Of a stretch of DNA of 64,000 nucleotides, positions 6,820 to 64,000 are shown in pieces; the first letter of the stretch is position 1; each line of letters opens with the position of its first letter. Origin of the DNA: Gammaproteobacteria bacterium (GTDB lineage Bacteria; Pseudomonadota; Gammaproteobacteria; Steroidobacterales; UBA11654); contig JAPYQN010000004.1 of NCBI GenBank assembly GCA_029941465.1, forward strand, positions 13,111-77,110, given 5' to 3'. The notes under the pieces were generated by a model, which saw nothing but the letters and a program-made list of their open reading frames with translations, made no database searches and was not told where the DNA came from. Made by a program: the position numbers and the translations under genes.

Positions 6820-6895
6820 GGTCGACTTCTTATTTTGTAGTTAATATGAAATATTATAATTCATCATCAATTTTAATATGCTTTAAATTAGAAAC

Positions 6896-13429: not shown

Positions 13430-15133
13430 TTAATAGTAATCAACTTCACTGTCATCAATCAGTGCTCTAGGATCTGAAGAGGTGTCAACTTTGCCATTTG
13501 ATTTTTGCATTGTGACAATTTGCATGTTCCCATAGTCTGCAATTTCTTCCAGATTGTGCCCTTTAGATTGAAGCTCTTGAATCATATCTTTACTAAACGT
13601 GTCTCTCTCGTATTGTATGACATCTGGTAAATACTGATGATGAAAACGATTTAATGATGTCATTGCATCGGCTGATCCGCCATTCGTCCAATTTAAAATA
13701 GACAGAAGCACCATCGTAATAATTTTAGCTCCTCCAGGAGTCCCTAAAATAGCTATACCTTTATCAGACTCAATAAAAGTAGGTGTCATGCTAGATAGCA
13801 TCCTTTTTTTAGGCTCAATAGAGTTTGCCTCACCGTGCACTAGACCATATCGATTAGGTGCAAAAGGCTTAGCGGAAAAATCATCCATTTCATTGTTTAA
13901 TATAAACCCAGCAGAAGGGACCATATAGCCCGAACCAAACCATGTATTAATCGTTTGAGTTGTGGCAACCCGGTTTCCTTGATTATCTATGATTGAAAAA
14001 TGAGTTGTTTCTGTGCCTTTGTTGGCATTTAAAGCAATCGTCATATTATCTTCAAGGTGGATAGGGGTAGCCTGAGTTAAATCGATCGTTTCTGTGTGCT
14101 TAACCGCATGATCTAACCCAATCAACTTATTAATTGGAATATTAACAAAATCAGGGTCACCAAGATACGCTGCTCGATCTTGATATGCTCTTCGCATAGC
14201 CTCAACTATTAAATGAATTAGGTCAGCTTCTTCCATTTGTTTATAGTCGTATTGGGCAAGGATATTTAAGATGGCAGCTATAGTGGTTCCACCAGATGAC
14301 GGGGGTGGTGCAAGGGTTAGTCTAAATTCTTTAAAGGCTACTGTAATCGGCGAACGTTCCACAACCTGATAATCATAAAAATCTGCTAAAGACCAAATTG
14401 ACCCATCCTTGTTGGTTTCATTGATGATAGTTTTAGTCAGCTCGCTGTCATAAAATCCTTGATGGCCCTGTTCAGCTATGGTTTTTAGTGTAGTGGCGAG
14501 TTCTTTTTGCTTAATCACATAACCAACATCTGGCAGTTTATTATTAGGTAAGAAGATCTCCTTAAACTTGGGAGACATCACATCAACTTTCAGGGCAACC
14601 CTTAAGGCAACCAGCAGCCTTTCATAAACAGGGAAACCCTGTTCGGCAAGCTCAATTGCAGGCCTCAAAACTGTATCTAATGGGAGTCTTCCATAATTTT
14701 CAGAAATGTAGACAAGCGCAGCTGGTAAACCGGGTATACCAGAAGCCAGTGGACCGTCTAGAGAAACCCTAGGTATCACATTTTGCTTCTCATCCAAATA
14801 CATTTCTGAGTAAGATTCAAGTGGGGCAACCTCTCTTGCATCTATAAATGTTGAGAGCTCATCACTACTTCGGTAAAGGAGAAAAAACCCACCACCACCA
14901 AGCCCTGAGCTATATGGCTCTACCACAGAAAGAGCAGCACTAACTGCAACAGCAGCATCAAAAGCATTGCCTCCTTGTTCTAAAATTGTATAACCTGCTT
15001 TAGTTGCTAATGGATGAGCAGAAGCGATGCCAGGTTGTTGTGGTTTGGTTGGTTGACTAAAAGCAATCGGGGTATTGATCAGTGAAATACAAATCAAGAC
15101 TTGTAAGAATGCTTTACTAAACAAATTATGCAT
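13430..15133 (-). CDS. ggt: Gamma-glutamyltranspeptidase (signal peptide)
   Basis: SSGLGGGGFFLLY, the autoprocessing site GTETTHFSIID, and MSSMTPT. 567 aa. Confidence 0.88.
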   Translation of the reverse strand: MHNLFSKAFLQVLICISLINTPIAFSQPTKPQQPGIASAHPLATKAGYTILEQGGNAFDAAVAVSAALSVVEPYSSGLGGGGFFLLYRSSDELSTFIDAREVAPLESYSEMYLDEKQNVIPRVSLDGPLASGIPGLPAALVYISENYGRLPLDTVLRPAIELAEQGFPVYERLLVALRVALKVDVMSPKFKEIFLPNNKLPDVGYVIKQKELATTLKTIAEQGHQGFYDSELTKTIINETNKDGSIWSLADFYDYQVVERSPITVAFKEFRLTLAPPPSSGGTTIAAILNILAQYDYKQMEEADLIHLIVEAMRRAYQDRAAYLGDPDFVNIPINKLIGLDHAVKHTETIDLTQATPIHLEDNMTIALNANKGTETTHFSIIDNQGNRVATTQTINTWFGSGYMVPSAGFILNNEMDDFSAKPFAPNRYGLVHGEANSIEPKKRMLSSMTPTFIESDKGIAILGTPGGAKIITMVLLSILNWTNGGSADAMTSLNRFHHQYLPDVIQYERDTFSKDMIQELQSKGHNLEEIADYGNMQIVTMQKSNGKVDTSSDPRALIDDSEVDYY

Positions 15134-30355: not shown

Positions 30356-31819
30356 ATGAAACTTGAAATAAAAAATCAGAGCTTATTCATAGAAAAAGCA
30401 TACATCAACGGTCAATGGGTTGACGCTGATGATAGCTCAACTTTGGATGTCCTCAACCCAGTAAACCAAGAAATTATAGGCCGCGTGCCAAATTGTGGTG
30501 CAACAGAAACCAATGTTGCGATAAATGCTGCTGCAGAAGCACAAAAAAAATGGCAAAAATCTCATGCAAAAGAGAAAGCTTCTATTCTGAGAGATTTTTA
30601 TAATCTGATTTGCTCCAATCAGGACGATTTAGCAAGAATTCTTACCTATGAACAAGGCAAACCTCTAGCAGAAGCTATAGGAGAAATTGCATACTCAGCA
30701 TCATTTATTGAATGGTTTTCAGAGGAAACAAAACGCATCTATGGAGATGTAATACCTGGACACATGCATGATAGGAGAACTATAGTTATCAAGCAACCTG
30801 TTGGAGTTGTGGCTGCAATCACACCTTGGAATTTTCCCTCAGCAATGCTGGCAAGAAAAGTTGGTCCTGCGCTTGCAGCAGGCTGCTCGCTTGTCTGTAA
30901 ACCAGCAAAACAGACTCCTTTTTCAGCGTTGGCCTTTGCTTATTTGGCAGAGGAAGCAGGCTTGCCCAAAGGTTTGTTAAATGTATTAACCGGCAATGCC
31001 CAGACCATTGGTAAAGCATTAACTGACAGTACCCTAGTCCGTAAATTAACGTTTACTGGGTCAACTGAGATAGGAAAAATGCTTCTAAAAGAGTGTGCAA
31101 AAACAGTGAAAAGAGTGTCTATGGAGCTGGGAGGGCACGCCCCATTTATCGTTTTTGAAGATGCAGATATAGAGGCTGCTATTGCGGGAGCAATTGCGGC
31201 AAAATATAGAAATACAGGCCAGACCTGTGTTTGTGCTAATCGAATATATGTTCACCAAGATATTTATGAACAGTTTTCTGAAGGGTTTGTTAAAGAAGCT
31301 AGGAAACTTCAAACAAGCCAAGGTTTTGACCCTTTAGCAGATCAAGGTCCTCTTATTGATGAAGCTGCCTTAGCCAAAGTTGAAGAACATGTTGCAGATG
31401 CAAAAAATCATGGGGGTCAGGTTGTTCTGGGCGGTCAGCCTCATGAGCTTGGAGGGTTGTTTTATGAGCCCACTGTTATCAAGAATGCTAATGATGAAAT
31501 GCTCGTGTCATATGAGGAAACATTTGGACCGGTAGCACCTTTATTTTCGTTTTCAACAGAAGAGGAAGTGATAGAGAGGGCAAATAACACACCTTTTGGC
31601 CTAGCCTCATATTTCTACACCAGTGATTTAGCAAAAAGTTGGAGGGTTTCTGAACAGCTTGAATATGGAATAGTTGGCTTGAACACCGGAATTATTTCTA
31701 CTGAAATGGCTCCGTTTGGTGGTGTTAAAGAATCAGGCATGGGCAGAGAGGGTTCAAAATATGGGATAGATGATTATTTAGAAATAAAATACATCTCTCT
31801 AGCTGGCATAGAAGAATAA
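30356..31819 (+). CDS. gabD: Succinate-semialdehyde dehydrogenase (aldehyde dehydrogenase family)
   Basis: FTGSTEIGK, ELGGHAP and the QTCVCANRIYV catalytic Cys block. 487 aa. Confidence 0.8.
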   Translation: MKLEIKNQSLFIEKAYINGQWVDADDSSTLDVLNPVNQEIIGRVPNCGATETNVAINAAAEAQKKWQKSHAKEKASILRDFYNLICSNQDDLARILTYEQGKPLAEAIGEIAYSASFIEWFSEETKRIYGDVIPGHMHDRRTIVIKQPVGVVAAITPWNFPSAMLARKVGPALAAGCSLVCKPAKQTPFSALAFAYLAEEAGLPKGLLNVLTGNAQTIGKALTDSTLVRKLTFTGSTEIGKMLLKECAKTVKRVSMELGGHAPFIVFEDADIEAAIAGAIAAKYRNTGQTCVCANRIYVHQDIYEQFSEGFVKEARKLQTSQGFDPLADQGPLIDEAALAKVEEHVADAKNHGGQVVLGGQPHELGGLFYEPTVIKNANDEMLVSYEETFGPVAPLFSFSTEEEVIERANNTPFGLASYFYTSDLAKSWRVSEQLEYGIVGLNTGIISTEMAPFGGVKESGMGREGSKYGIDDYLEIKYISLAGIEE

Positions 31820-33229: not shown

Positions 33230-35194
33230 TTAATCTGTTCCTTGGAGTTGCTTAATAATACCTTCATCTTCAAGTGTTGAGATATCTTGAGTAATTTCCT
33301 CACCTCTTGCAATTGCTCTGAGTAGACGCCTCATAATTTTTCCTGATCTAGTCTTAGGAAGATTCTCTAAATATCTAATATCATCAGGTTTTGCAATGGG
33401 GCCAACTTGCTCAGCAACCCAATTCCTTAGTTCTTTTGTTGCCTTAGGCTCTTTATCCTCAGTCGGTCGCTCTCCTTTGGTGACAACAAAAGCAAAGATT
33501 CCCTCACCTTTTATATCATGTGGCTTTCCTACCACTGCAGCCTCAACAACATTTGGGTGCGAAACCAATGCAGATTCTACTTCCATCGTTCCTAGACGAT
33601 GGCCTGAAACATTTAAGACATCATCTATTCTCCCCATAATCCAAAAAAACTCATCTTCATCTTGGTTGGCGCTGTCCCCAGCAACATAGAGCCTATTGTT
33701 GAATTTTGCCCAATATGTTTCTATGTATCGATCGTTGTCGCCCCAAATCGTTCTTAACATTGAAGGCCATGGTTTTGTTACGACCAAATAACCACCTTTG
33801 TTAGGTTGGTCAACTGTGTTTCCCCTATCATCAACAATATCCATCATAATTCCTGGTAAGGACTGTGTGCATGACCCGGGTTTAGTTGAAATGACTCCGG
33901 GCAATGGGCTAATCATGGCTGCTCCTGTTTCAGTTTGCCACCAAGTATCTACGATCGGACATTTTTCTTTACCAATTACTGAGTGATACCACATCCATGC
34001 TTCTGGATTAATGGGTTCACCAACAGTCCCCAGTAGTCTAAGTGTGGATAAATCATACTGGTTTGGAATATTGTCGCCAAACTTCATTAACGCTCTAATT
34101 GCAGTTGGTGCCGTGTAAAATAGTGTGACCTTGTGTCGCTCACAGATCTCCCAGAACCGTCCAGGATGAGGGTAGGTTGGAGCCCCTTCATAAATTAAAA
34201 TAGTTGCTCCAGCCGCTAAGGGTCCATACGCAACATAGGAATGGCCTGTAATCCAACCCACATCAGCTGTGCACCAAAAAACATCCGAATCTTTGATGTC
34301 AAAAATCCATTGGAATGTAGTTTTTGCGTGTAACAGGTAACCCCCTGACGAATGCTGTATCCCTTTTGGTTTTCCTGTTGAGCCTGAGGTATAGAGGATA
34401 AATAAAGGGTGTTCTGAATTTAATGCTAGGGCTTTTGACTCTCTGTCTTGGTCTTTAGTGAGATCATGCCACCATATGTCTCTTTGGTTGGACATATTGA
34501 TAGGCTCACCTGTTCTTTGGAACACCACCACATTTTTAACCGGAGTTTCCCAACCCTCCAATGCTTTATCAGTAGAGTCTTTTAATGGAATTATTTTACC
34601 CCCGCGAAAGGCCCCATCTGCGGTAATAACAACCTTAGCTGCGGCATCCTCAATACGATCTTTAAGGGCGTTGGATGAGAAACCACCAAAAACAACTGAG
34701 TGCACTGCACCAATTCGTGCGCATGCCTGCATTGCTATAACTGCCTCAGGCACCATTGGCATATATATAACCACCCTATCCAAGGCCTGAACCCCAAGAT
34801 CTAACAAGCCATTAGAAAGCTTGGAGACTTCATCCAGCAACTCTTGGTATGTAATAGTTTTTGTCTCTCCGTTTTCAGCCTCAAAAATGATCGCTTTTTT
34901 GTTTGGAAATTTTTGTGCATTCAAGTCGAGGCAATTATAGGAAACATTAATTTCTCCATCAGTAAACCATTGATAGTTTGGTGCGTTTGTATCATCTAAG
35001 ACAGTAGAAAAATCTTTAAACCAATAAAGATTTTCTTGTGCTAGTTTCGCCCAATACCCTTGGTAATCTTCTTCCGCATGTTTTTTTAATGCTTCCAGTT
35101 CTGTTGGGGTAATATTTGCTTGCTGGCTAAAAGTTTCTGATGGAGGGAATTGTCGCTTTTCGTTTAAGATAGACTCAATGGTTTTTTCACTCAT
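33230..35194 (-). CDS. acs: Acetyl-CoA synthetase
   Basis: [18 protein letters not shown]-like WWQTETG, and the C-terminal [10 protein letters not shown]. 654 aa. Confidence 0.93.
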
Positions 35195-52580: not shown

Positions 52581-53396
52581 ATGGATCATTACGCAATAAT
52601 TGGGAACCCTGTAGAGCATAGCCGGTCGCCAAAAATACACCGGTTATTTGCTGAACAACTACAGCATGTATTAGCTTATGAAAAAATAGAAGCCACCGAA
52701 AAAACATTTCAAGAAAAGGTTGAAGAATTTTTTACTAAAGGCGGCAAAGGAATAAATATCACTGTTCCCTTTAAGCGTTTAGCTTTTTCAATAAGCGACA
52801 AGCTTGGAGCTTGTGCCTCAAGTTGTGGAGCGGTTAACACTTTAAGTTTTTCAGAGGATGGTAGGGTTTATGGTGAAAGCACAGATGGAAATGGTTTAGT
52901 TGAGGACCTGAAGAACAACAACATTGCTATTAACAACAAATCTATTTTGATTGTTGGAGCTGGGGGCACTGCACAGAGTATTATCCCATCTCTGCTCGCA
53001 AACAATGTAGGTCAACTTTCCGTAACAAACCGCACCCCAAACAATGCATTTAAATTAAAAGAACAGTATCTACATCTGGCTGAGATTGTTTGTTTGGATG
53101 GAGAATCAATCAATAGAAATTTTGATTTAGTCATTAATACTACCTCGGCTCATTTATCAGGAGAGCTGCCAGAAATTGAGCCAATTGCAGTAGAAAAAGC
53201 TACCTCGTATGATGTTAATTACAGTTATGGTGAAACATTGTTTCAAAGCTGGGCTACAAACCATGGTGCAACAAAGTCCCTTCAGGGTTGGGGGATGCTG
53301 GTTGAGCAGGCTGCGGAGTCCTTCTATATTTGGCGAGGTGTCCGCCCAAAAACAAGGGTGGTTATTGATCGCTTAAGTTCAGAGCCTGAAAACTAA
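52581..53396 (+). CDS. aroE: Shikimate dehydrogenase
   Basis: IGNPVEHSRSPKIH, NITVPFK and GAGGTA. 271 aa. Confidence 0.9.
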   Translation: MDHYAIIGNPVEHSRSPKIHRLFAEQLQHVLAYEKIEATEKTFQEKVEEFFTKGGKGINITVPFKRLAFSISDKLGACASSCGAVNTLSFSEDGRVYGESTDGNGLVEDLKNNNIAINNKSILIVGAGGTAQSIIPSLLANNVGQLSVTNRTPNNAFKLKEQYLHLAEIVCLDGESINRNFDLVINTTSAHLSGELPEIEPIAVEKATSYDVNYSYGETLFQSWATNHGATKSLQGWGMLVEQAAESFYIWRGVRPKTRVVIDRLSSEPEN

Positions 53397-53399
53397 GAG

Positions 53400-53690
53400 T
53401 TAATCACACCACACATCATACATAATGGAATAATTTGCTGCTTGTTGTGACATAAACCCAGCAGCAGCATAAAGCTCTTGTTCTGCTGCTTTTCGCTCAT
53501 TTTCTGGTTGGTCTTTAGCATTATTTTTTTCTATTTCTTTAAAAAGATAGTCTGCAATACCCATAGCCTCACCAATGCCTTGCTTCATCTCTTCACAATT
53601 TGATTCATTTAACAAAGAATCATTGTGTCCGTCAGCCCATGTCATGCTTCCGGGTAATAACAACAAACCAATTAAAATAATTTTTTTCAT
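53400..53690 (-). CDS. Small secreted protein of unknown function
   Basis: 96 aa. Signal peptide MKKIILIGLLLLPGSMTWA. Two Cys (one is the penultimate residue). No recognisable family. Confidence 0.45.
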   Translation of the reverse strand: MKKIILIGLLLLPGSMTWADGHNDSLLNESNCEEMKQGIGEAMGIADYLFKEIEKNNAKDQPENERKAAEQELYAAAGFMSQQAANYSIMYDVWCD

Positions 53691-53701
53691 CTTCCTTCTC
53701 C

Positions 53702-53938
53702 TTATTGGTTATTTTTTTGCTCAAGTAAAGCAGAAAAGTCATCATAACCACCAACATGTTTTCCACCAACAATAATTTGTGGAAATGTTTTTGCCCCCGG
53801 AAACTTTTCTAAAATAAACCCCATTTCAAAGTCTTTGCCTAGCTCTTGATAGCTATAACCAATACCTTTCTGTTTACATAAAAATTTAGCTTTCTCACAA
53901 TGGATGCAATCTGGTTTTCCAAAAATTTCTGCGTTCAT
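53702..53938 (-). CDS. Glutaredoxin-family protein with an atypical C-I-H-C active site
   Basis: 78 aa. KPDCIHCEKAK...TFPQIIVGGKHVGGYDDF (glutaredoxin fold signature). Confidence 0.75.
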   Translation of the reverse strand: MNAEIFGKPDCIHCEKAKFLCKQKGIGYSYQELGKDFEMGFILEKFPGAKTFPQIIVGGKHVGGYDDFSALLEQKNNQ

Positions 53939-54020
53939 TTTATTTTTTCAAGAAACAATTCATTTTAATTTCTATTACACTGCACTTATTATATTCCAAA
54001 ATAAATAATTTAAATTAAAT

Positions 54021-54785
54021 ATGAAAATAGCGAGCTGGAACGTTAATGGTATAAGAGCCAGGCTAGATCATGTATCAGACTGGCTGCAAATCAATCAACC
54101 CGATGTTTTAACCCTTCAAGAAACTAAAGTAATGGACGAGATGTTTCCACTTGATGCCTTTAAACCCTTAGGCTATCAAGTAAATATTTATGGACAAAAA
54201 TCTTATAATGGGGTCGCTGTATTGACCAAAAAACCACTAACGGAGATAAAAAAAGGGATAAGTGGGTTTAAAGATGACCAGACTAGGGTCATTACTGGCA
54301 CTTATAACGGCGTCCTGATAATTAATGTTTATGTTCCTAACGGACAATCTGTAGGGTCTGAAAAATTTGACTATAAAATGAGGTGGTTAAAGCACTTTTA
54401 TGCCTATTTACAAACACTTCTTAAGGCCCATCAGAAGATAGTTATATTAGGAGATTTTAATATAGCTCCTGCTGATATAGATGTGCATGATCCTGAGCTA
54501 TGGAAGAATAAAGTCTTGTGTAGTGAAAATGAAAGAGAGTGGTTAAATCAAATCCTGGGTTTAGGTTTTGCAGATAGTTTTAGGTTGTTTGAACAACAAG
54601 AAAGATTGTATAGCTGGTGGGATTATCGAGCTGCGGCCTATAGAAGAAAAATGGGCATGAGAATAGATTTAATTTTGATATCTGAGGCTCTAAAAAAGGA
54701 CTGCATGAAGAGTTATATTGATGAAACCCCAAGAGGGCAAGACAAGCCTTCCGATCATGCTCCTGTTCTTATTGAGTTAAGTTAA
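54021..54785 (+). CDS. xth: Exodeoxyribonuclease III (paralogue 2)
   Basis: MKIASWNVNGIRARL, LQETK and SDHAPV. 254 aa. Confidence 0.9.
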   Translation: MKIASWNVNGIRARLDHVSDWLQINQPDVLTLQETKVMDEMFPLDAFKPLGYQVNIYGQKSYNGVAVLTKKPLTEIKKGISGFKDDQTRVITGTYNGVLIINVYVPNGQSVGSEKFDYKMRWLKHFYAYLQTLLKAHQKIVILGDFNIAPADIDVHDPELWKNKVLCSENEREWLNQILGLGFADSFRLFEQQERLYSWWDYRAAAYRRKMGMRIDLILISEALKKDCMKSYIDETPRGQDKPSDHAPVLIELS

Positions 54786-54791
54786 TTTACT

Positions 54792-56018
54792 TTATGCCTC
54801 AAGGGTTAAGGCTTTTTTTATGCCTTGGATGGCGATGTCAGCATGCTCTTTTTTAAATGTAATCGGTGGTCTTAATTTTAATACCTTGTTATCAGGCCCA
54901 GTTTGTCCAACCAAAATGCCCTCGTCTAACAACCTCTCTAAGGCCTCTGAAGCTTCATTGTTTGATCTCATCTCAATGCCAATAAAAAGACCGCTGCCTC
55001 TAACATCTTCAATCGTATTTAAGCTGCTTGCTAATTGTTCTAACTCCTCTTTAAAGTAGCTCCCAACTGACTGTGCGTGTTCTATTAATCCATGTTTATG
55101 TATATATTTTATAACCGCTAAGCCAGCTGCTGCTGCAACAGGGTTCCCCCCAAAGGTATTAAAATAGCCATACTTTTTGTTGAATGTTTGCGCTATCTCA
55201 TGGGTTGTTATTACCGCAGCTAACGGATGGCCGTTGCCCATAGGTTTACCCAAGGTCACGATATCAGGAACAACATCGTCATGCTGAAACCCCCACATAT
55301 GTTTACCTGTTCGCCCAAACCCTGATTGCACCTCATCTGCAATGGTTAGCCCATTGAACGACCTAACTAAGTCATACATATTTTTAAGATAACCCTCTGG
55401 CACTGAGAAAATACCGTCGCTGCTGAAAATATTATCTGCGATAAAGGCAGCCGGGGCTTGGCCTTCTTTTTTTAGTTCTTCGGCTACTTTAAAGCTGTCG
55501 GATAAGTGTTTTTCTTTATTATCTAAATACTCTCTTGGCCCACCAACCAGTCCCACCCAACCTTCTCTAAACTCTAAAGAGCAATCCTCTGGGCTCATTT
55601 GAAAAACCACTGAGGTGTTGCCATGATAAGCATTCTTTGTAACCAAACATCCTTTTTGTTGGGTGTAATTTCTAGCTAATTGCAAAGCTAAATCGTTTGC
55701 TTCACTGCCGCTACAACAAAAATAGCAAACCTCCAAACCCTTATCCATGGTGGCTGTTAGCTGTTCGGCTAACTGAATAATGCTCTCATGAATGTATCGC
55801 GTGTTGGTGTTAAGGGTTGCTGCTTGTTTAGAGATTGCGTCTACAACCTCCGGGTTAGAGTGTCCGATATGGGCTACATTATTATAAACATCGAGATACC
55901 TTTTGCCATTACTGTCTATTAGCCAAACGTCCTCTCCCTTAACAATATGCAGAGGTTGTTTGTAAAAGAATGAGCTTGCATTGCCCAAGTGTTTTTTTCT
56001 TCGCTGTCTTAAGTTCAT
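54792..56018 (-). CDS. Class-III PLP enzyme of the ETNPPL/PHYKPL (AGXT2L) ammonia/phosphate-lyase type
   Basis: The blocks [72 protein letters not shown] (PLP Lys), [10 protein letters not shown] and [10 protein letters not shown] closely parallel my recollection of mammalian ETNPPL/PHYKPL. 408 aa. Confidence 0.7.
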
Positions 56019-56024
56019 TAAATA

Positions 56025-57113
56025 TTAAAATTTATTTTCACTTTCGCTTAAAAACCTTATTAATTGGTTTGCCATTTCTTTGGGTTGTTCTTGATGTGCT
56101 TGCCTCAATACATCCCATGTTTTTTCAATAGAGCCTAAAATATACTCTTTGTTTTCAGGGTGTGTTGTTGCTCTCCATTCAGCAATAATTAACCCCATAG
56201 CTATGCGATTAACCACCAAACCTGGGAGCAATGCTATTTCATTTTTTGTTAAAGGGTATTCTTTTTGATAGCCCTCTAACAAATAACAAGTTCCGGTTAA
56301 CAGGTCTTGTTGTGTAACCGTTTGGTAAGAGGCCGCCACAGCCAAATCGTTAACCAAAGGGGCAAACACCATGTCTCCAAAATCAATCATCCCAGAAACG
56401 CTGTCTAAAGAGTCACGGGTTACCAAAACATTGTCTGGGTTCATGTCGTTATGAATAACTTGGGATCGCAGTTTTTTTAAGGGTTCTTTAATGTGTTCAA
56501 CAAAATACTCTAAAGACTTTTTAACTAGGTCTTTCTTTTTTTTATCCTTAATAAACTCTATTATTTCAAACAGGCTTTCGGTCTCTTTAACATCCCATAA
56601 AAGCCGATGGTTAGAGTTATCGTGTGTAAACCCTTTTAAACCTTGGCCCAAGAGCCCTAAAAATGAGCCCATATTAAAATATAACACTTTAAAATCTTTT
56701 GGTTGCTTGGCGTCGCCCATAGGAATTCCATCAACATAAGAGACCATCCTAATATAGTGCTTACTCTCATTTACCTCCTCTTGACGAATTAGTTTGCTGC
56801 TGCTATCAGGGATAACTTTAGGAAGAATTAGGTTGGTGGATAATGCAAGATGTTCCAATGCTTTGTTTTGTAGATCCAAGACACCAAAGGGTTCTTTAGC
56901 GTTGGCAACTTTTAAAACAAATTTTTTTTCGTTTTGATCTTTGAATAAGAAGTTTTGGTCGCGCTCGCTCGCTAAGGGTTTTATAAAGGCGGGTTCACTG
57001 AACCAAGCTGATGAAAATAACTCTGCTTGCTTATTGGTTAGTTGTGGAGCTGGGTGCTCTAGGACAGGGTATGAAAAGGGTTGTTTAGTCATTGTTTTGC
57101 CAAATTGTTTCAA
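56025..57113 (-). CDS. APH-fold small-molecule kinase, hydroxylysine kinase (HYKK/AGPHD1)-like
   Basis: SERDQNFLF, VLKVANAKE, the catalytic loop IHNDMNPDNVLV, the metal site MIDFGDM and the C-terminal HPENKEYI. The start may be ATG 57092. Confidence 0.65.
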   Translation of the reverse strand: MKQFGKTMTKQPFSYPVLEHPAPQLTNKQAELFSSAWFSEPAFIKPLASERDQNFLFKDQNEKKFVLKVANAKEPFGVLDLQNKALEHLALSTNLILPKVIPDSSSKLIRQEEVNESKHYIRMVSYVDGIPMGDAKQPKDFKVLYFNMGSFLGLLGQGLKGFTHDNSNHRLLWDVKETESLFEIIEFIKDKKKKDLVKKSLEYFVEHIKEPLKKLRSQVIHNDMNPDNVLVTRDSLDSVSGMIDFGDMVFAPLVNDLAVAASYQTVTQQDLLTGTCYLLEGYQKEYPLTKNEIALLPGLVVNRIAMGLIIAEWRATTHPENKEYILGSIEKTWDVLRQAHQEQPKEMANQLIRFLSESENKF

Positions 57114-57921
57114 TCCAAGACTTTATAATTAAAGCTTCTTGCCAACGATCTGATAACTCTAACTGTGTTGCATCCGTAATGGCGTATCCAGGAGGTCCTA
57201 GCTCACATAAAAAATACAGTGTCTTATTTTCCCCATTTCTCTCTCTCCATTTTTGGATACCCTCTGCCCACCATTTTTTAAAAATATCTACCCAAACTTG
57301 GTGTTGTGGGAAGTTAAGCTGTATTTGTATTTGTTCGCGGCTAGCTACCCTGCCTTGAAAACAATCTGAACGCTCTAATATGGTGGTAATATATTGTTGG
57401 TCTGACTTGCTGATTGGAGTCCACATTTCCCTATCAACCACAAAGTGGGATAGGTCTGCACACAATCTCATCTCTGGAACCGCATCAATTAATTGGAGCG
57501 TGTAGTAGAGGTCATTCAGCAGGCTGTCCCTATGTGTCTCAAATAGAATCTTTATATTGGCTTTGTCTGCCTCTTCCATCCATGTATAAACTAATGGCAC
57601 AGCATCCTTATAATCTATCGGCATTACCCCCCCAATAATATTGACAAAACAAGCATCAAACTCTTTGGCTAGATTTAAAATAGGTCCGAGATCCCCCACC
57701 TTATAGGGAAATGCATTAACCATGCACCCCAAATTGTTCTCAATAAAATGGTGTTTTTTTGCACGGAAAGCTTTTATTTCGTGGGCGGCTAAATCAATGG
57801 TGGCGCCACTAAAGCCAGCCTTCTTTATTTTCTTAAAGTTATGTTCGTCGCTAGGTTCTTTTTTTGTTGGGTGCCGCTGCTCCATTGCCCAAAGAGATTG
57901 ATACACTTTTAATTGTTGCAC
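57085..57921 (-). CDS. Xylose-isomerase-like TIM-barrel protein (sugar-phosphate isomerase/epimerase family)
   Basis: 278 aa. The pattern ...LFETHRDSL...CADLSHFVV... is typical of the AP-endonuclease-2/xylose-isomerase-like fold. GTG start. Family-level call only. Confidence 0.5.
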   Translation of the reverse strand: MQQLKVYQSLWAMEQRHPTKKEPSDEHNFKKIKKAGFSGATIDLAAHEIKAFRAKKHHFIENNLGCMVNAFPYKVGDLGPILNLAKEFDACFVNIIGGVMPIDYKDAVPLVYTWMEEADKANIKILFETHRDSLLNDLYYTLQLIDAVPEMRLCADLSHFVVDREMWTPISKSDQQYITTILERSDCFQGRVASREQIQIQLNFPQHQVWVDIFKKWWAEGIQKWRERNGENKTLYFLCELGPPGYAITDATQLELSDRWQEALIIKSWIETIWQNND

Positions 57922-57926
57922 GCCGC

Positions 57927-58952
57927 TTACTCCAAAAACTTTAATAGGCCTGCTGATTTGAGGATATCATTTAGCTCGGTTTTATCTGGGATTGCTGCAT
58001 ATTCTTCTAACAATGCTAAAAATGATTTGGTGTGATATTTTTGGACTGCGGTCACTTTATGCTCAAAAATATTGCCATTAATAATTATAGACAAACTGTC
58101 CTCTCCGTTCTGTATGGCTTTGTTGTTAGCGCTTAACCATGGCATGAAGACTTGGGCCATTTCTGTGATTAATATTGGCATTATTGTATTTTCCAAGCTG
58201 CTCCATTGTTCAAAATCTCCTTCGTTTTTAGGGCTCAACATGCGGGCTATCCATTGTTTTACATTGGGGTAGCCGCCTTCAATGATTCTTTTTCCACTAA
58301 CATCAGTCCAGGCGTTATACACCTGCCCCCAAAGACCAAAATCTGCTAAAGATGGTCTCGCGCCAAAAAGGTATGGCCTGTGGTGTAAGTGGTTATCCAA
58401 CAATCCCAATAGGTTAGTGAATGACCTCTCAATTTCTCCCTCAGTTATAGGGTTTGACCCTATAACCCAAAGCCTTGTCTTCATTCTTTTTTTAAATATT
58501 TTAGCGGCTTGGTTTTTTAATATTTTATGTAAGATTGGCAGCCTTTTAGCCCAACCAGGAACAAATAACTCACCAAAGCGCTTGCTTGCAGCGGTTTGAT
58601 CTGCTTTGTATCGCCAACGGTAATGAAACATTGGTTTCACAACCCATTCGTCAGCATACTCTTCAAAAAATCTGCTGATAAAGGCTGTGTGTATTTCGTT
58701 TGGAATTATGCTGTTTTGGGGAAATTTTTCTTCTAACGATTGTATGATTGGCGTTGAGTCCTGGAGTACCTCTCTCTCGGGGGTTAGCACCAAAGGGATA
58801 ACCTGAATTTTTGCGAGTTTATTAAACTCTTTTTGTGTTTGTTGGTTTCTTATAATCCATTGATGAGGGATTTCCTTGTAACGAAAATAAGACCTCACCT
58901 TAACAGAGTAAGGTGACAACTCAGCACCATATATTAAATAGTCTTTGGTCAT
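57927..58952 (-). CDS. Glutathione S-transferase-like protein (thioredoxin-fold N-domain, long C-terminal domain)
   Basis: LSPYSVKVRSYFRYKEIPH...VIPLVLTPEREVLQDSTPIIQSLEEKF. 341 aa, about 120 aa longer than canonical GSTs. Confidence 0.55.
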   Translation of the reverse strand: MTKDYLIYGAELSPYSVKVRSYFRYKEIPHQWIIRNQQTQKEFNKLAKIQVIPLVLTPEREVLQDSTPIIQSLEEKFPQNSIIPNEIHTAFISRFFEEYADEWVVKPMFHYRWRYKADQTAASKRFGELFVPGWAKRLPILHKILKNQAAKIFKKRMKTRLWVIGSNPITEGEIERSFTNLLGLLDNHLHHRPYLFGARPSLADFGLWGQVYNAWTDVSGKRIIEGGYPNVKQWIARMLSPKNEGDFEQWSSLENTIMPILITEMAQVFMPWLSANNKAIQNGEDSLSIIINGNIFEHKVTAVQKYHTKSFLALLEEYAAIPDKTELNDILKSAGLLKFLE

Positions 58953-60247
58953 AATTCGTTTTTGTTTTTATAAAGAGCGCTCATTAACTCAAAGACCACC
59001 GGCGTTAATTTTGTTTCGCTCATTTGTTTGTCTTTAAAATAACTGTTCCACACCACCACATAGTCCTCAGTGGGGTTTACTATTAACCCTTGTCCAGCCC
59101 AACCTCCTTTATAAATATTGCCATTCTCAAAAACCATATCCCACTGATCTATATTGTGTTTAAGCCCGGGAATGAGACTAGGAACACCTGGTTTTGTTAT
59201 AAGGGATGGCCGTCCTGAGTAGAGCAATTTATTAATATACTTTTCTGAGATCAGCCGCTTATCAGATACCTTATTAAAGCTAGGGGTAAACAATAACCCA
59301 AAACGGGCAACATCTTTTGGTCTAGCTAAAAACCCGCCATGCGTGACTGGGACGCCAAACCTGGGTGCAAAAAAAGCGGCGTCTGCCTCGGCACCAATTT
59401 TGGTCCAAATCATTTCACTTAGAGCGTCTTGGAACTGAAGCCCTGTTATTTTTTCAACCATCCACCCAAGAATAAATGTGTTAACCCCTGAGTAATCAAA
59501 TTGTTTTCCTTGTTCGGTAAACTTACCAACCTTTAGTTTTGCAACAAACTCATATGGATTGTCTGGAGACTCTGCGGTCCAAAAACCGTCTCCTATTGCA
59601 GAAGAATACACATAGTAACAAGCTTGTTTGTTTTCATACTCCTCGGAACATTTAATGCCTGTTGCCATATCGAGAATATTTTGCACCAGGATCCCTTCAA
59701 AATCTGAGCCTTTTAATTCTGGTAAATACAGATCGATTGGGAGCATTGTGTCAATCTTGCCTTGCTCCTCCAACATCGCCACCAGCGTTGCTACAAAGAC
59801 TTTTGCAACTGACCAAAAAATGGGCTTTTCATGGGGTTTCATTCGCGGATAGCTCTCATAAACTATTTCACCCTTATGAACAATGATCATTGATATTGCA
59901 GTTGAAAGATCGCTGTGCAGAAAACTCTCAAATGCCATCGGTCCTTTAGGTGTTTGTATTTTAGTGTTAGCGATACGTTTAGAGATATTTAGAGGCAAGT
60001 TTTTTACTGGCCCGTTTCTGTAAACGGTGTTTGTTGGAAAAATTTTATTAAGGTTTTTAAAGTTCCACAACATATCCTCACCATAAACAGTCCACCATAT
60101 GTCATCGGTGGGTAATTTTTTGATTTGCTCCCTTGTGATATCAACTTCCGCGTTAACAGAAATGTCAGCAACACTGTGCTGCATAGAAAGCAATACCATT
60201 ATATAAAAACAATATTGAGTTTTTTTGTTAAGCATGTGATTAAACAT
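58949..60247 (-). CDS. Secreted beta-lactamase-fold serine hydrolase (class C/EstB/aminopeptidase-like)
   Basis: N-terminal signal-like segment. S-x-x-K motif in FWSVAKVFVATL. 432 aa. Start overlaps the upstream stop (TAATG). Confidence 0.6.
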   Translation of the reverse strand: MFNHMLNKKTQYCFYIMVLLSMQHSVADISVNAEVDITREQIKKLPTDDIWWTVYGEDMLWNFKNLNKIFPTNTVYRNGPVKNLPLNISKRIANTKIQTPKGPMAFESFLHSDLSTAISMIIVHKGEIVYESYPRMKPHEKPIFWSVAKVFVATLVAMLEEQGKIDTMLPIDLYLPELKGSDFEGILVQNILDMATGIKCSEEYENKQACYYVYSSAIGDGFWTAESPDNPYEFVAKLKVGKFTEQGKQFDYSGVNTFILGWMVEKITGLQFQDALSEMIWTKIGAEADAAFFAPRFGVPVTHGGFLARPKDVARFGLLFTPSFNKVSDKRLISEKYINKLLYSGRPSLITKPGVPSLIPGLKHNIDQWDMVFENGNIYKGGWAGQGLIVNPTEDYVVVWNSYFKDKQMSETKLTPVVFELMSALYKNKNEL

Positions 60248-61191
60248 TATATTTGTTGTGTTGTTTCAGTCCTAAAAAATTTGAAAAAGCACCATGTAGA
60301 AAACGCGCTTAACAGGTGCCATATTGCGTGGGGTTGCAACCAAGCATCAGGGTTGCAGAGCATCTCTGACCATTGATTTAACCAAATGGTAAAGGCGGTT
60401 ATGTATGACGCCATACCCAAGAAAAACCAAGGGTTATAGGTTCTTTTAATTCTTGGTGCGTGGGGCGCAAAAACAGCTGGGAGCCAAAATAAAACCACCC
60501 ACCAATACTCGGCAGGATTGGACAGAATTTCACTGGGCAGCGTTCCAAACATTGCTGCAACCACAAACCCCACTAACCCAGAAACCCACCTAAAAACTGG
60601 TGTCCAAAAATTAAATAGTGTTTCTGAAATTATCCATAGTCCTATTGATAAACCAAATAAATCTAAACCAATTCCAAGGTCATCCCCGTACACCCATCTT
60701 GCATACCCATAAAGAACAACGATGGAAAAATAAATTACAAGAAAGCGCTCTGAGCTCCAGCGCCCCATTTCTTTTAGGTTATAAAGCCATGGGAAGATGA
60801 TGTACATAACCATACTTAGGTTGTCTGCCCATTGCCCCCATTCAGTGTGGGTTCCATGCATCAACATTGAGCCAGGACCCAAGTAAATGGCAGCCCCTGC
60901 ATAAAGCATGCTTAATTTATTTAACCCACTGAATGTGTTTTGTTGTTGGTTGGTTGGGCCTATGCTTAAAGCTCTAAACATATAAAGACCGGCAATCATA
61001 AACCCTAGGTTGCTGAGTGCATTTGAGGGCTCCCTAAAGATTCCATCACTAACTCTTTCACACCACCTAGAAACATCTCCAGCTGATAATCCAGGCTCAA
61101 ATGACAAAATCAGTCCGCTTGAGGCCAGTATGAAATAGGCCAGCAAAAACAACGCGCTTAAAATAACGGCTATTGGGAAAGCTTTATTCAT
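60247..61191 (-). CDS. 7-TM alkaline-ceramidase-family (PF05875-like) membrane hydrolase
   Basis: RWCE...REPSNALSNLGF, GSMLMHGTHTEWGQWADNLSM and PHAIWHLLSA are collinear with the DWCE/NTxSNL, His-81 and HxxWH zinc-site blocks I recall from human ACER3. About 7 TM. 314 aa. Confidence 0.65.
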   Translation of the reverse strand: MNKAFPIAVILSALFLLAYFILASSGLILSFEPGLSAGDVSRWCERVSDGIFREPSNALSNLGFMIAGLYMFRALSIGPTNQQQNTFSGLNKLSMLYAGAAIYLGPGSMLMHGTHTEWGQWADNLSMVMYIIFPWLYNLKEMGRWSSERFLVIYFSIVVLYGYARWVYGDDLGIGLDLFGLSIGLWIISETLFNFWTPVFRWVSGLVGFVVAAMFGTLPSEILSNPAEYWWVVLFWLPAVFAPHAPRIKRTYNPWFFLGMASYITAFTIWLNQWSEMLCNPDAWLQPHAIWHLLSAFSTWCFFKFFRTETTQQI

Positions 61192-61225
61192 TTTTTACTC
61201 ACCGTTACTATAAAGGCTTGGGGCT

Positions 61226-61585
61226 TTATTGGTGCGTTCGGTTGCCATCAAAAACACAAACAAAATACAGCTCGTCTTCGGAGTCATTAACAACTCTGTG
61301 GAATTTGCCGTCCTCTATTAAAACAACATCCCCTTGCCTGACTGCAAAATCTTCATTGATGGTAATGTCGTCGGCATCTTGGGTTCCAAGGAGCATTCTA
61401 CCCATGCCCTTAACAAAAATATAAACCTCTTCTTGTCCCGCATGGAAGTGCCCTGTGGTTTGTTTTCCTGGGTTTAGGTTGGTGCTGCTCACTACTAGAT
61501 TCTGTAAATCTGTATTGTCTTTTACAATATAGCGGTCATCTTCTTTAACTAAAGCGCCACCTACATCGTTGATATTAATTTTCAT
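61226..61585 (-). CDS. Small cupin protein with a cupin-type phosphoglucose-isomerase-like metal motif
   Basis: 119 aa. TTGHFHAGQEEVYIFVKGMGRMLL...FHRVVN (His/Glu metal ligands). Confidence 0.55.
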   Translation of the reverse strand: MKININDVGGALVKEDDRYIVKDNTDLQNLVVSSTNLNPGKQTTGHFHAGQEEVYIFVKGMGRMLLGTQDADDITINEDFAVRQGDVVLIEDGKFHRVVNDSEDELYFVCVFDGNRTHQ

Positions 61586-61679
61586 GTTTCTCCTTTTCTT
61601 CTTTGGTCTCTTCTAAAAACAAATTCTATATATATTTTACATGATCATTAACATGTTGATAAACAAACTGTGCTGAGGC

Positions 61680-63788
61680 TCACCATAATCTAGGAACCTC
61701 TTCTTGCCATTCTTTTTCTCTAATCACCTCTCCGTTTTTTTCCAGTATCCTCTTGAATTTATAATAGAATGTTTTTTCATCGCTACTGAAATCGAGTATT
61801 CCGGTCCATTTTAAGCCTTGGTCTTTTTGTTCTTCTTTTAGTTGAACGGTAGTGGTGTAGGTGCTTAGAACGCTGGACAGCGCTGGCGTAACATCATTCG
61901 CTGTGTAGGTGACTAACTCCTTATAACTGCGAACGCCCCAGGGGTATTGGTCACTGCCCGAATTTCTGGCCAGTATCGTTGTGGTTCCGGTGCGTTCGTC
62001 TCGCTGAGTGTCTGACAATTCCGGATAGCCAGAGATGGTGCCAGAGGCGATGGAATTATAGTTGGGTAATTTCGGCGGGGGCGCTACAGGATTGGGGAAA
62101 GGATTTGCCATTGGTGTTGGATTGATAGGCACCGGTAATGTCAAAAATGACTTCAATTGGTTGTTCGATCTGATTGAGGTCGTCATGGGGTAGGGAGAGG
62201 GCCAGATCATGGGCCATTGGGCGTTGTTGACTGACACTCGTATCTTATGTCCTTTTTCAAACGTCCAAGAGGTGGCATGTAACTCGACATTAAGTGTATA
62301 AACTTTGTCCTCGGTCAAGCGAATTGGTTTTTCCGAAGATTCCACATGGTTGGCATTGAAGCCGGCTCCAGTGATGAAAGTAACCATGCCGTTGGGAGCG
62401 ACGTCGGATAATCGTACAAACCAGTTGGCTGCTGCTGCATCAGCGGTGGTTTGCAAAGTCACCTGAGGCATACCAATGATGGCCAATCTTTCGATGATAG
62501 GTTCTGAGTCGTAGACCAGACTGTGTGCATCTACAATTTTTTGATCCGGTTTTAAATCGCCCCACCACATCGCTGTGCCAGTGGCGTCTGGGGTAGTGGG
62601 ATAGTAAGTTAGTGAATGCTCAAATTGTGCGGGTGTGGCGACTAAATGGTGGTTCTGGTTGAAATACAACACTGAATTCCTGGTTTCTGGCCACTGAGCC
62701 GAGGTGTACCAACGACCGGGAATATTCGTCAGATCCTCTCCCGGCTCGTGCCAATCGCGTTGGTAGTAATAGACGGACGGTTCATTCAAAATGCCTGTGT
62801 CTTTGCCCTTCATCCAATGGTCCAACCAACGCACGGCCATCTCTCTCCACTCGATAGCAGGCTCTGGATAAGCGTTGTGTGGGAAAGTATGATTCCAGGG
62901 GCCTAGTAGCGCCTTATAAGGTACATCAGCATTCTGAGCCATTCTGGGCACGATATCCCGATAACCATCATAGTAACCGCCGATTACGAAAACAGGGATA
63001 TCTATCAAGGAGTAATCTGTGTTTAAAGACGCTCTGTTCCAGAAAGGACCATCCACTTGTTGTTTCTTATACTTCAATAGCCAAGGGGCTGTATCAAAAC
63101 GGTCGCTAAAGTAACTTCCTCCAATATCAAAATCAGGCGACCCGGGTATTATGTTATCTATGTCCATCATCAGCTCATAGGTATCAATGTGGTGCATTCC
63201 ATCAATGAAATGGACGTCATCTTCATAGATATCGTCGGTAGACATTAACGATATAATGGTTTTTAACGCAGGAGGGTGACGCATCGCCATGTGGAGTCCG
63301 TTGAACCCACCCCACGAAATTCCAAGCATTGCTATGTTGCCATTAGAAAAATGCTGTTTGGACAACCAATCAATTACCTGTAAGCCGTCTAATTGTTCTC
63401 GTTCCGAATACTCTCCATCCACCAATTTCCCTTCACTGCGCCCAGTTCCTCTGATATCAACTCGGGCAACAATGTAGCCGCGCTTAACAAAATAATGGAA
63501 AGTGTCAAGTCGGGAAGGTCTGCTCTCATCCTTACGATACGGCAGATATTCCAGTATCACCGGAAGGCGTTCGTTATTTTTCAGGTTAATGGGCACATAA
63601 AGATCGGCAGCCAATTTGATGCCATCTTTCATAGGTATTAAGATTTCTTTAATTTGTACGTCCCCCGCTACAACTGCGCTTGTTTGTCCGTATAGTGCTT
63701 TTGGAATCAACAATACGAACAGCAGTACGAACGAAAATGCGAGCTTTGTCAGAATCTTTTTTTTGCCGATAAAAATGGTATAAAACAT
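61680..63788 (-). CDS. CocE/NonD-family hydrolase (S15 X-Pro dipeptidyl-peptidase family), N-terminal signal/anchor
   Basis: 702 aa. Nucleophile elbow MLGISWGGF. The layout is an alpha/beta hydrolase domain followed by a C-terminal jelly-roll. Confidence 0.7.
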   Translation of the reverse strand: MFYTIFIGKKKILTKLAFSFVLLFVLLIPKALYGQTSAVVAGDVQIKEILIPMKDGIKLAADLYVPINLKNNERLPVILEYLPYRKDESRPSRLDTFHYFVKRGYIVARVDIRGTGRSEGKLVDGEYSEREQLDGLQVIDWLSKQHFSNGNIAMLGISWGGFNGLHMAMRHPPALKTIISLMSTDDIYEDDVHFIDGMHHIDTYELMMDIDNIIPGSPDFDIGGSYFSDRFDTAPWLLKYKKQQVDGPFWNRASLNTDYSLIDIPVFVIGGYYDGYRDIVPRMAQNADVPYKALLGPWNHTFPHNAYPEPAIEWREMAVRWLDHWMKGKDTGILNEPSVYYYQRDWHEPGEDLTNIPGRWYTSAQWPETRNSVLYFNQNHHLVATPAQFEHSLTYYPTTPDATGTAMWWGDLKPDQKIVDAHSLVYDSEPIIERLAIIGMPQVTLQTTADAAAANWFVRLSDVAPNGMVTFITGAGFNANHVESSEKPIRLTEDKVYTLNVELHATSWTFEKGHKIRVSVNNAQWPMIWPSPYPMTTSIRSNNQLKSFLTLPVPINPTPMANPFPNPVAPPPKLPNYNSIASGTISGYPELSDTQRDERTGTTTILARNSGSDQYPWGVRSYKELVTYTANDVTPALSSVLSTYTTTVQLKEEQKDQGLKWTGILDFSSDEKTFYYKFKRILEKNGEVIREKEWQEEVPRLW

Positions 63789-63794
63789 AATTTG

Positions 63795-64000
63795 TTAATT
63801 CTTCTGTTGAAGGGTAGCTGTAAATTCATTTTTTCCATCAAAATAAACTATATTTTTTATTTCGGGTGGTTCCTCTACACATTTTAGATTAATGCTGTAT
63901 GAATCGGGATGTGAACGAGGTTGATAAAAACTTTTTATTCCGCATTTTTTACAAAATAAATGCTTTGCTTTTTTAGTTCCAAAAGAATACTCGGTAATTA
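63795..64000 (-). CDS. GFA/CENP-V-family protein, C-terminal 67 codons (runs off the right edge)
   Basis: Not in the ORF track. The minus-strand frame reads ...ITEYSFGTKKAKHLFCKKCGIKSFYQPRSHPDSYSINLKCVEE...QQKN* with the stop at 63795-63797. FC-x-x-CG is typical of glutathione-dependent formaldehyde-activating-like proteins. Confidence 0.55.
   Translation of the reverse strand, partial: ITEYSFGTKKAKHLFCKKCGIKSFYQPRSHPDSYSINLKCVEEPPEIKNIVYFDGKNEFTATLQQKN

Follow-up and report, generated by a model that had tools for sequence, protein, structure and literature searches.

Gene content and layout of the cluster

The window analysed here comprises 64,000 nucleotides (nt) of contig JAPYQN010000004.1 from a Gammaproteobacteria bacterium (assembly GCA_029941465.1), and our interest concerns seven consecutive genes on its minus strand, running from 61585 down to 54792 (all positions are those of the window). 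An initial annotation had read them as an operon in which a ceramidase-family enzyme with seven transmembrane helices (7-TM) takes the acyl chain off a membrane lipid, after which a kinase and a phospho-lyase destroy the amino alcohol that is set free. Comparison with related loci leads to a different picture: four of the genes form a fixed back end, and the hydrolases in front of them, the ceramidase homologue included, vary between species. The genes are listed below in their order on the minus strand with protein lengths in amino acids (aa); the names cer, blac, gst, tim, kin and plp are used throughout.

61226..61585, minus strand: cupin gene, Cupin_2 protein (Pfam) of 119 aa with the metal motifs GHFHAGQEEVY and GKFHRVVN; accessory
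60247..61191, minus strand: cer, 7-TM homologue of the CREST-superfamily zinc hydrolases (PF05875, 47.8 bits), 314 aa; accessory front-end gene
58949..60247, minus strand: blac, secreted beta-lactamase-fold serine hydrolase (S-V-A-K), putative NylB-like amidase (PF00144, 80.5 bits), 432 aa; frequent, dispensable
57927..58952, minus strand: gst, glutathione S-transferase (GST)-like protein (GST_N_3 and GST_C_2 above their cut-offs), 341 aa with a C-terminal extension of about 100 aa; invariant core
57085..57921, minus strand: tim, xylose-isomerase-like TIM-barrel enzyme, UlaE/ketose 3-epimerase-like by AlphaFold (AF2) model and Foldseek, 278 aa; invariant core
56025..57113, minus strand: kin, APH-family small-molecule kinase, HYKK-like (PF01636, 69.6 bits), 362 aa (355 aa from the ATG at 57092); invariant core
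54792..56018, minus strand: plp, class-III pyridoxal-phosphate (PLP) enzyme of the phospho-lyase subfamily, ETNPPL/A1RDF1-like (Aminotran_3), 408 aa, catalytic Lys258; invariant core

The seven open reading frames (ORFs) lie where the initial annotation had placed them, and the junctions recomputed from the sequence are the same as well: 34 nt separate the cupin gene from cer, cer and blac overlap by 1 nt (TAATG), blac and gst by 4 nt (ATGA), 5 nt lie between gst and tim, tim and kin overlap by 29 nt, and plp follows kin after 6 nt. If kin starts at its codon-8 ATG, the overlap between tim and kin becomes 8 nt instead of 29 nt. Gene callers applied to identical contigs do start kin at Met8 (355 aa), and the spacing is tight whichever start is taken; they also start blac at Met5, which replaces the 1-nt overlap by an 11-nt gap. 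This start, at 60235, is the likelier one for blac and gives a protein of 428 aa whose N-terminus reads as a signal peptide. Domain families were assigned by Pfam profile scores, in bits against the family cut-off, and all seven families proposed earlier agree with the result, tim scoring below its cut-off with the fold confirmed by Foldseek. The quoted motifs GHFH...EEVY and S-V-A-K are likewise present in the translations.

Spacing is also kept in about 30 related loci, for which ORF limits were projected from tblastn alignments. The overlap of 4 nt between blac and gst recurs in 23 of 31 loci, gst and tim are separated by -8 to +5 nt in the relatives, tim and kin always overlap, and the gap from kin to plp mostly measures 4-9 nt. 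Further upstream, the cupin gene and cer lie 21-36 nt apart in 24 of 25 loci. Neighbourhoods and junction spacing in relatives thus bear out the cluster as a conserved, tightly spaced unit.

Conservation of the gene neighbourhood

When tim was used as a probe on the species-representative genomes of GTDB, 80 loci were obtained; in 13 of them gst immediately precedes tim. Since L023 does not extend far enough to be assessed, 12 core-bearing species remain, 11 of them with upstream sequence. Using cer as a probe on metagenome contigs also gave 80 loci. Across the approximately 170 related loci, gst-tim-kin-plp is the sole set whose members always occur together, and they do so in every core-bearing locus. 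By comparison, cer is found in seven of the 12 core-bearing species and is absent from the other five (L019-L021, L032 and L061), so that it is not the necessary and defining partner that it had been taken for. The blac gene is present in all 12 except L022, but a place in the invariant core is ruled out by the many loci that lack it (L022, L103, L104, L106, L108, L109, L112, L114, L117 and L123).

Each of the 11 species-representative loci with upstream sequence has at least one amide hydrolase, be it cer, blac or an M20 metallopeptidase, immediately before gst. Because three unrelated amide hydrolases swap at one position, the general logic of the initial annotation is supported, and this is its sound kernel: an amide hydrolase does recur ahead of the kinase and the lyase, but cer is not the fixed one. 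The arrangements seen in front of gst are as follows.

cer and blac: this window, L014-L018, and L013 as far as its contig reaches
cer, M20, blac: L011, L012
cer, M20: L103, L114
cer abutting gst directly: L022, L104, L117, L123
cer and two small ORFs: L109, L112
divergent IclR regulator, then blac, with a CoA-transferase gene after plp: L019; L020 has the same ORF layout and L021 the same gene hits
short-chain dehydrogenase/reductase (SDR), acyl-CoA synthetase, M20, blac: L061, L032

The cupin gene accompanies cer in many but not all related loci and is absent from L015-L018 and L019-L021. In L019 the divergent IclR-family regulator lies upstream and the family-III CoA-transferase gene downstream of the lyase gene (6788-7585 on the minus and 13159-14319 on the plus strand of that locus); in L061 (1139-3594), and likewise in L032, the SDR and an AMP-forming acyl-CoA synthetase precede the core. 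An upstream ORF of 303 aa in L019 was considered as a divergent replacement of cer and rejected, as it matches no Pfam family and shows no similarity to cer.

On metagenome contigs cer is found with the operon until its identity falls to about 65%, at which point kin is about 47% identical. Beyond the operon, cer homologues stand alone: at least 16 metagenome loci at 62-66% identity have at least 5 kb of downstream sequence with no operon gene in it, and four individually examined homologues at 58-66% likewise lack the operon genes, which brings the total to at least 20. In a neighbour-joining tree the in-operon cer sequences form one clade and every stand-alone cer falls outside it. A convergent exonuclease III (exoIII) gene downstream is common to all core loci. 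The single cer clade and the shared exoIII gene together indicate that the link between cer and the operon arose once and was then inherited vertically, with later losses. The genes do co-occur outside this genome, as the initial annotation would have it, but only within one clade.

Kinase and phospho-lyase

The translation of kin contains the catalytic HxDxxxxN loop (HNDMNPDN) and a DFG-like metal-binding motif (IDFGD). A search of the PDB returned a homoserine kinase as the sole match, and a weak one. The automatic annotation of the Joint Genome Institute (JGI) labels relatives at 36-41% identity 'hydroxylysine kinase'. For plp, scores reach 348 bits against A1RDF1 (5g4i) and 329 bits against human ETNPPL (6tor), compared with 179 bits for the best transaminase, and identity is 43% to both over about 400 residues. 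Its K258 aligns with the lysine of the GKPMGNGHP motif that 5g4i and 6tor have in common. Both proteins, moreover, match the fused bacterial family PRK06148 (NCBIfam), kin the N-terminal third (242 bits) and plp the C-terminal part (467 bits).

Outside the clade, homologues of kin at 36-43% identity occur either singly or as a bare pair of APH and Aminotran_3 genes, with no GST, TIM, cer or blac gene beside them; the pair is kept in L173, L174 and L176. The phospho-lyase-like scores of plp, the match to PRK06148 and this recurrence of the pair agree with the initial annotation of the two as a kinase and a phospho-lyase. This assignment is well supported by homology and by the recurrence, and phosphorylation followed by elimination is the chemistry predicted from it.

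GST-like and TIM-barrel proteins

The gst product belongs to a family of proteins of about 340 aa, with 156 representative clusters at E <= 1e-30. Its profile matches span many GST classes and none is close, the best being 4jed with 50 bits. A glutathione-site signature (S13-P14, P53 and D65-S66-T67) is conserved with little or no variation across 26 family members. The protein thus has the hallmarks of the glutathione transferase superfamily, which are a thioredoxin-like N-domain with a catalytic residue, a cis-Pro and a Ser that binds the gamma-glutamyl group, followed by a helical C-domain; its glutathione binding would be of the serine type.

For tim, sequence and profile searches of the PDB gave no match, and the score against AP_endonuc_2 (PF01261) is 24.6 bits, below the cut-off of 31.1. 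The AF2 model (mean confidence, pLDDT, 87.8) is more informative: the best Foldseek match is 3cqj, UlaE, with E 1e-8 and a query TM-score (TMq) of 0.65; the 3-epimerases of D-psicose, D-allulose and L-ribulose come next, and these top matches range over E 1e-8 to 1e-5 and TMq 0.55-0.65. The family alignment (A1) has 97 invariant columns, and the acidic and histidine residues E128, D156, H159 and E240 are conserved at strand ends.

Members of the tim family with 58-66% identity are spread across Woeseiaceae, Halieaceae and Cellvibrionales, where they occupy three gene contexts. In 31 loci tim is found directly 3' of a gene for a membrane protein of the fatty-acid-desaturase family; in 19 it is the last gene of a cluster that encodes a class-III aminotransferase, two flavin-dependent (FAD) oxidoreductases, GcvT and an ADP-forming acyl-CoA synthetase; and in 13 it belongs to the GST-TIM-kinase-lyase core. 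The 60-odd homologues outside the core, at about 60% identity, are distributed over the first two contexts. The three contexts suggest one reaction on an intermediate common to several pathways. As gst and tim are invariant, they, and not cer, are the distinctive feature of the operon.

The ceramidase homologue

Membership of cer in PF05875 and the CREST superfamily, as initially annotated, was confirmed by a score above the cut-off (47.8 bits against 32.5, residues 43-307) and by invariant catalytic motifs. In CREST proteins these motifs are an SxxxH at the end of core TM2, an Asp at the start of TM3 and an HxxxH at the start of TM7 (PMC3146951). The corresponding residues of cer (S108xxxH112, D123 and H288xxxH292) do not vary among 22 homologues. 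Neither sequence nor profile searches of the PDB gave a meaningful match, and ACER3 was not hit directly. The AF2 model (pLDDT 88.5) was matched by Foldseek to SID1, ACER3 and AdipoR at TMq 0.4-0.5 (0.51 for SID1, 0.41 for ACER3); this predicted structure shows CREST membership but does not set the protein nearer to ACER3 than to other CREST branches. From an extra N-terminal helix and the positive-inside pattern, the active site is predicted to face the periplasm, and two invariant cysteines fall in predicted periplasmic loops.

Stand-alone PF05875 homologues (L007-L010 and L126-L172; 58-67% identity to the window protein) occur widely among marine Gamma- and Alphaproteobacteria and are unusually conserved. 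They most often follow a small VOC/glyoxalase gene (15 of 36 loci, about 130 aa), and GFA and MerC genes recur near them too. In L007 the gene sits beside a proteorhodopsin/carotenoid cluster. In L009 (9001-11439) it is followed by a gene for an Exo_endo_phos protein of 366 aa, with BNR-repeat, sialidase-like genes at the flanks. The Exo_endo_phos fold family includes bacterial sphingomyelinases, and the neighbourhood in L009, a single occurrence, is more suggestive of sphingolipids than that in the window.

The other hydrolases

The best solved relative of blac is the 6-aminohexanoate-dimer hydrolase (1wyb and others), with 136 bits and E 1.6e-38 over about 350 residues. Such hydrolases are amidases; NylB/EII is a beta-lactamase-fold amidase/esterase. 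Directly upstream of the cluster, on the same strand, lie two further features:

61634..61662, minus strand: sigma-70-like hexamer pair TTATCA-17-TAAAAT followed by an AAGGAG ribosome-binding site, in the 94-nt gap 5' of the cupin gene
61680..63788, minus strand: CocE/NonD (S15) hydrolase, 702 aa, directly upstream across the 94-nt gap; not part of the conserved cluster

The CocE/NonD gene has a G+C content of 0.44-0.49 against approximately 0.39-0.42 in the cluster. It occurs only in contigs whose cer is identical to that of the window (L001-L006, L093 and L094) and is absent from L096 and L098, in which cer is 96% identical, and from L011. This restriction to a strain-level lineage, together with the deviant G+C content, rules it out as a member of the conserved cluster; it looks like a recent insertion at the cluster head, possibly acquired horizontally.

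The hexamer pair is a possible promoter of the operon, in a region where promoter-like sites are no more frequent than shuffled sequence leads one to expect; scans of the region for promoters and terminators gave counts no higher than those in shuffled sequence. No Rfam-type RNA element or riboswitch that would name a ligand was found in 53000-64000 at E <= 1.

Genomic setting

The remainder of the window is ordinary chromosome, with genes for glutamate synthase, PriA, ArgRS, Fmt, Def, TopA, AroE and exonuclease III. An origin of the cluster as a mobile element or island is ruled out by these housekeeping flanks and their conserved synteny. An identical cer protein in the same gene order is present on at least six marine metagenome contigs, and the closest named genomes are metagenome-assembled genomes labelled uncultured Woeseia/Woeseiaceae, along with open-ocean single-cell gammaproteobacterial genomes.

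On the downstream side, an ORF of 96 aa with a signal-peptide-like N-terminus and no Pfam family (53400-53690, minus strand) adjoins a small glutaredoxin gene at approximately 53700-54000 on the same strand, which gene callers give as 78 aa on identical contigs. In all related contigs examined, the two stay beside the downstream exoIII gene. Genes for an aldehyde dehydrogenase (30356-31819) and an acetyl-CoA synthetase (33230-35194) lie about 20-25 kb from the cluster and are unlinked to the operon; their products could handle an aldehyde or acetate product of the lyase.

Proposed function and alternatives

The explanation that we favour, and to which we give about an even chance of being correct, is that of a catabolic operon on the chromosome of a pelagic gammaproteobacterium of the Woeseiaceae type, in which the fixed four-gene back end serves a variable amide-hydrolase front end. 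In the front end cer (facing the periplasm, as predicted), the secreted NylB-like amidase and the M20 metallopeptidase would free an amino alcohol from amide-linked conjugates outside the cytoplasm, and in this strain the recently acquired CocE/NonD hydrolase may have been added to them. Judging from its homologues, kin would phosphorylate the hydroxyl of the vicinal amino alcohol in the cytoplasm, and plp would remove phosphate and ammonia by elimination, the product being an aldehyde or ketone, following the known chemistry of HYKK/PHYKPL and ETNPPL. Our guess is that tim, with its metal-dependent enolising fold, and gst might act on this carbonyl product or on a precursor, by an isomerisation or a glutathione-dependent step. 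An acyl-CoA synthetase and SDR upstream (L061 and L032) and a CoA-transferase downstream (L019) are consistent with the handling of an acid product. As to the first step, cer, the NylB-like amidase and M20 are equally good candidates for the deacylation, the latter two being more often associated with soluble substrates.

Several observations weigh against this explanation. The core-bearing loci all fall in a single clade whose flanking synteny is conserved, so that the co-occurrence amounts to approximately one evolutionary event plus retention, and the rule of at least one amidase rests on only 11 loci. In addition, the tim family is found at about 60% identity in two unrelated contexts and need not be tied to amino-alcohol chemistry, and the operon contains neither a transporter nor an aldehyde dehydrogenase.

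It now appears improbable that, as initially proposed, cer deacylates a lipid of the ceramide, sphingoid or N-acylethanolamine type, with kin and the lyase destroying the base and the other proteins handling head groups or reactive carbonyls. The intact SxxxH/D/HxxxH residues and the CREST fold speak for such a role, as do the close junction of cer to the next gene (at most 12 nt in 36 loci) and its retention in the operon while identity in kin fell to about 47%. The lack of a transporter would also suit a lipid base able to permeate membranes, an acyl-CoA synthetase is encoded upstream in L061 and L032, and by our own chemical reasoning the product from a 2-amino-1,3-diol would be an alpha-hydroxy-ketone, on which an epimerase-like TIM barrel could plausibly act. 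The very loci with the acyl-CoA synthetase, however, are among the five core-bearing species that lack cer, and the association of cer with the operon has a single origin. The stand-alone homologues have no kinase or lyase near them and travel instead with VOC/glyoxalase, GFA and MerC genes, which suggests a role of their own; conversely, the out-of-clade kinase/lyase pairs do without cer, GST and TIM. Characterised class-III phospho-lyases use terminal amines of small soluble molecules (PMC8154272), and our literature search found neither a function nor a demonstrated substrate for any bacterial PF05875 protein. With cer dispensable and most of its homologues located elsewhere, and with the NylB-like amidase and M20 pointing at least as much to soluble amides or peptides, the notions of a pathway tied to cer and of a committed deacylation of membrane lipids are not supported, and nothing that we found identifies a ceramide, sphingoid lipid or N-acylethanolamine as the substrate. 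We consider distinctly improbable a route for long-chain 2-amino-alcohol bases (sphingoid or capnoid, from algal or bacterial N-acyl lipids) with deacylation by a periplasm-facing PF05875 enzyme, kinase and phospho-lyase steps, and processing of the resulting alpha-substituted ketone by tim and gst. If it were real, bacterial alkaline-ceramidase homologues would have their first assigned function, and sphingoid-base degradation would have a third route in addition to sphingosine-1-phosphate lyase. The sphingolipid idea is the more striking one, yet it is not favoured by the evidence; a lipid substrate is possible but not indicated.

Soluble substrates offer another explanation, which we regard as unlikely: from peptides or omega-aminoacyl amides the NylB-like, M20 and S15 hydrolases, as secreted or periplasmic enzymes of peptidase type, would set free a hydroxylated omega-amino acid, for example 5-hydroxylysine, 4-hydroxyornithine, gamma-amino-beta-hydroxybutyrate (GABOB) or isoserine, and the HYKK-like kinase and PHYKPL-like lyase would convert it to a semialdehyde. 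It draws on the nearest solved relative of blac, an omega-aminoacyl amidase, on the recurrent insertion of M20 peptidases in the cluster, on the CocE/NonD S15 hydrolase upstream, and on the hydroxylysine kinase label given to relatives of kin, which is automatic annotation. Planktonic Woeseiaceae are moreover reported to be enriched in peptidases (PMC12175321; the paper makes no mention of these genes). On the other hand, the operon has no amino-acid transporter, blac is missing from many loci that have cer only, and the invariant gst and tim have no role in known hydroxylysine catabolism. Mere adjacency must also be weighed, and is in our opinion rather unlikely too: GFA, cupin and cer would be an independent module, possibly for membrane or metal/aldehyde homeostasis, that lies by chance upstream of the unrelated gst-tim-kin-plp genes and is read through. 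Indeed a small GFA or VOC/glyoxalase gene typically precedes stand-alone cer and a GFA gene is found upstream of cupin and cer in this clade, both cupin and cer were lost from L019-L021, L032 and L061 with the core kept, and a single clade of in-operon cer is what simple vertical synteny would produce. Chance fits less well with the junction of cer to the next gene, which is an overlap or at most 24 nt in almost all loci whether blac or gst follows, with the retention of the arrangement across deep divergence (again, kin at about 47%), and with the mutual replacement of cer and other amide hydrolases at the same position.

Under the favoured explanation of a fixed core behind exchangeable amide hydrolases, the either/or pattern of the hydrolases provides a practical handle, because mutually replacing enzymes should release the same amine. 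The IclR regulator of L019 gives a possible experimental route to the inducer. Extraction of nitrogen and phosphate-neutral carbon from amino alcohols by a kinase plus a phospho-lyase is known but has been little studied, and the lineage is common in open-ocean and deep-water metagenomes. Identity of the substrate would add a route to the turnover of marine dissolved organic nitrogen and would give first functions to bacterial PF05875 proteins, to this TIM family and to the GST-like family of 340 aa.

Comparison with known systems

Our literature search retrieved no description of this gene combination or of a pathway that joins a ceramidase, a kinase and a phospho-lyase. Pseudomonas aeruginosa reportedly has a sphingosine-responsive system, consisting of the secreted neutral ceramidase CerN, SphR and sphBCD, that couples a ceramidase to sphingoid-base handling. 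Compared by description only, it differs from the present cluster in that its ceramidase is an unrelated soluble neutral enzyme and no kinase/phospho-lyase pair is part of it. The alkaline ceramidases (ACER1-3 and Ypc1/Ydc1) resemble cer in PF05875 score, multi-pass helical fold and the SxxxH/D/HxxxH zinc-site motifs; cer departs from them in its extra N-terminal helix and in having only moderate structural similarity to ACER3.

With NylB/EII, its best solved relative, blac shares the S-x-x-K nucleophile motif, but it has a signal-peptide-like N-terminus and is set in what appears to be an amino-alcohol catabolic operon. UlaE (L-xylulose-5-phosphate 3-epimerase) and the ketose 3-epimerases share their fold with tim, whose conserved residues at strand ends stand where those enzymes bind metal; the differences are an identity of 10-13%, the Pfam score below cut-off and the lack of sugar genes near tim.

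The kinase and lyase have close parallels of their own. HYKK (AGPHD1) acts together with PHYKPL (AGXT2L2, the 5-phosphohydroxy-L-lysine phospho-lyase), and ETNPPL (AGXT2L1) is the ethanolamine-phosphate phospho-lyase. These systems, A1RDF1 and PRK06148 share with the window an APH kinase beside a class-III PLP enzyme with the common catalytic lysine and the GKPMGNGHP motif. Known pairs and out-of-clade homologues, however, are bare or fused, whereas here kin and plp are separate genes within a larger operon with invariant gst and tim and variable amide hydrolases. The kinase/lyase chemistry is already known; what appears to be new is its setting in this four-gene core behind exchangeable hydrolases.

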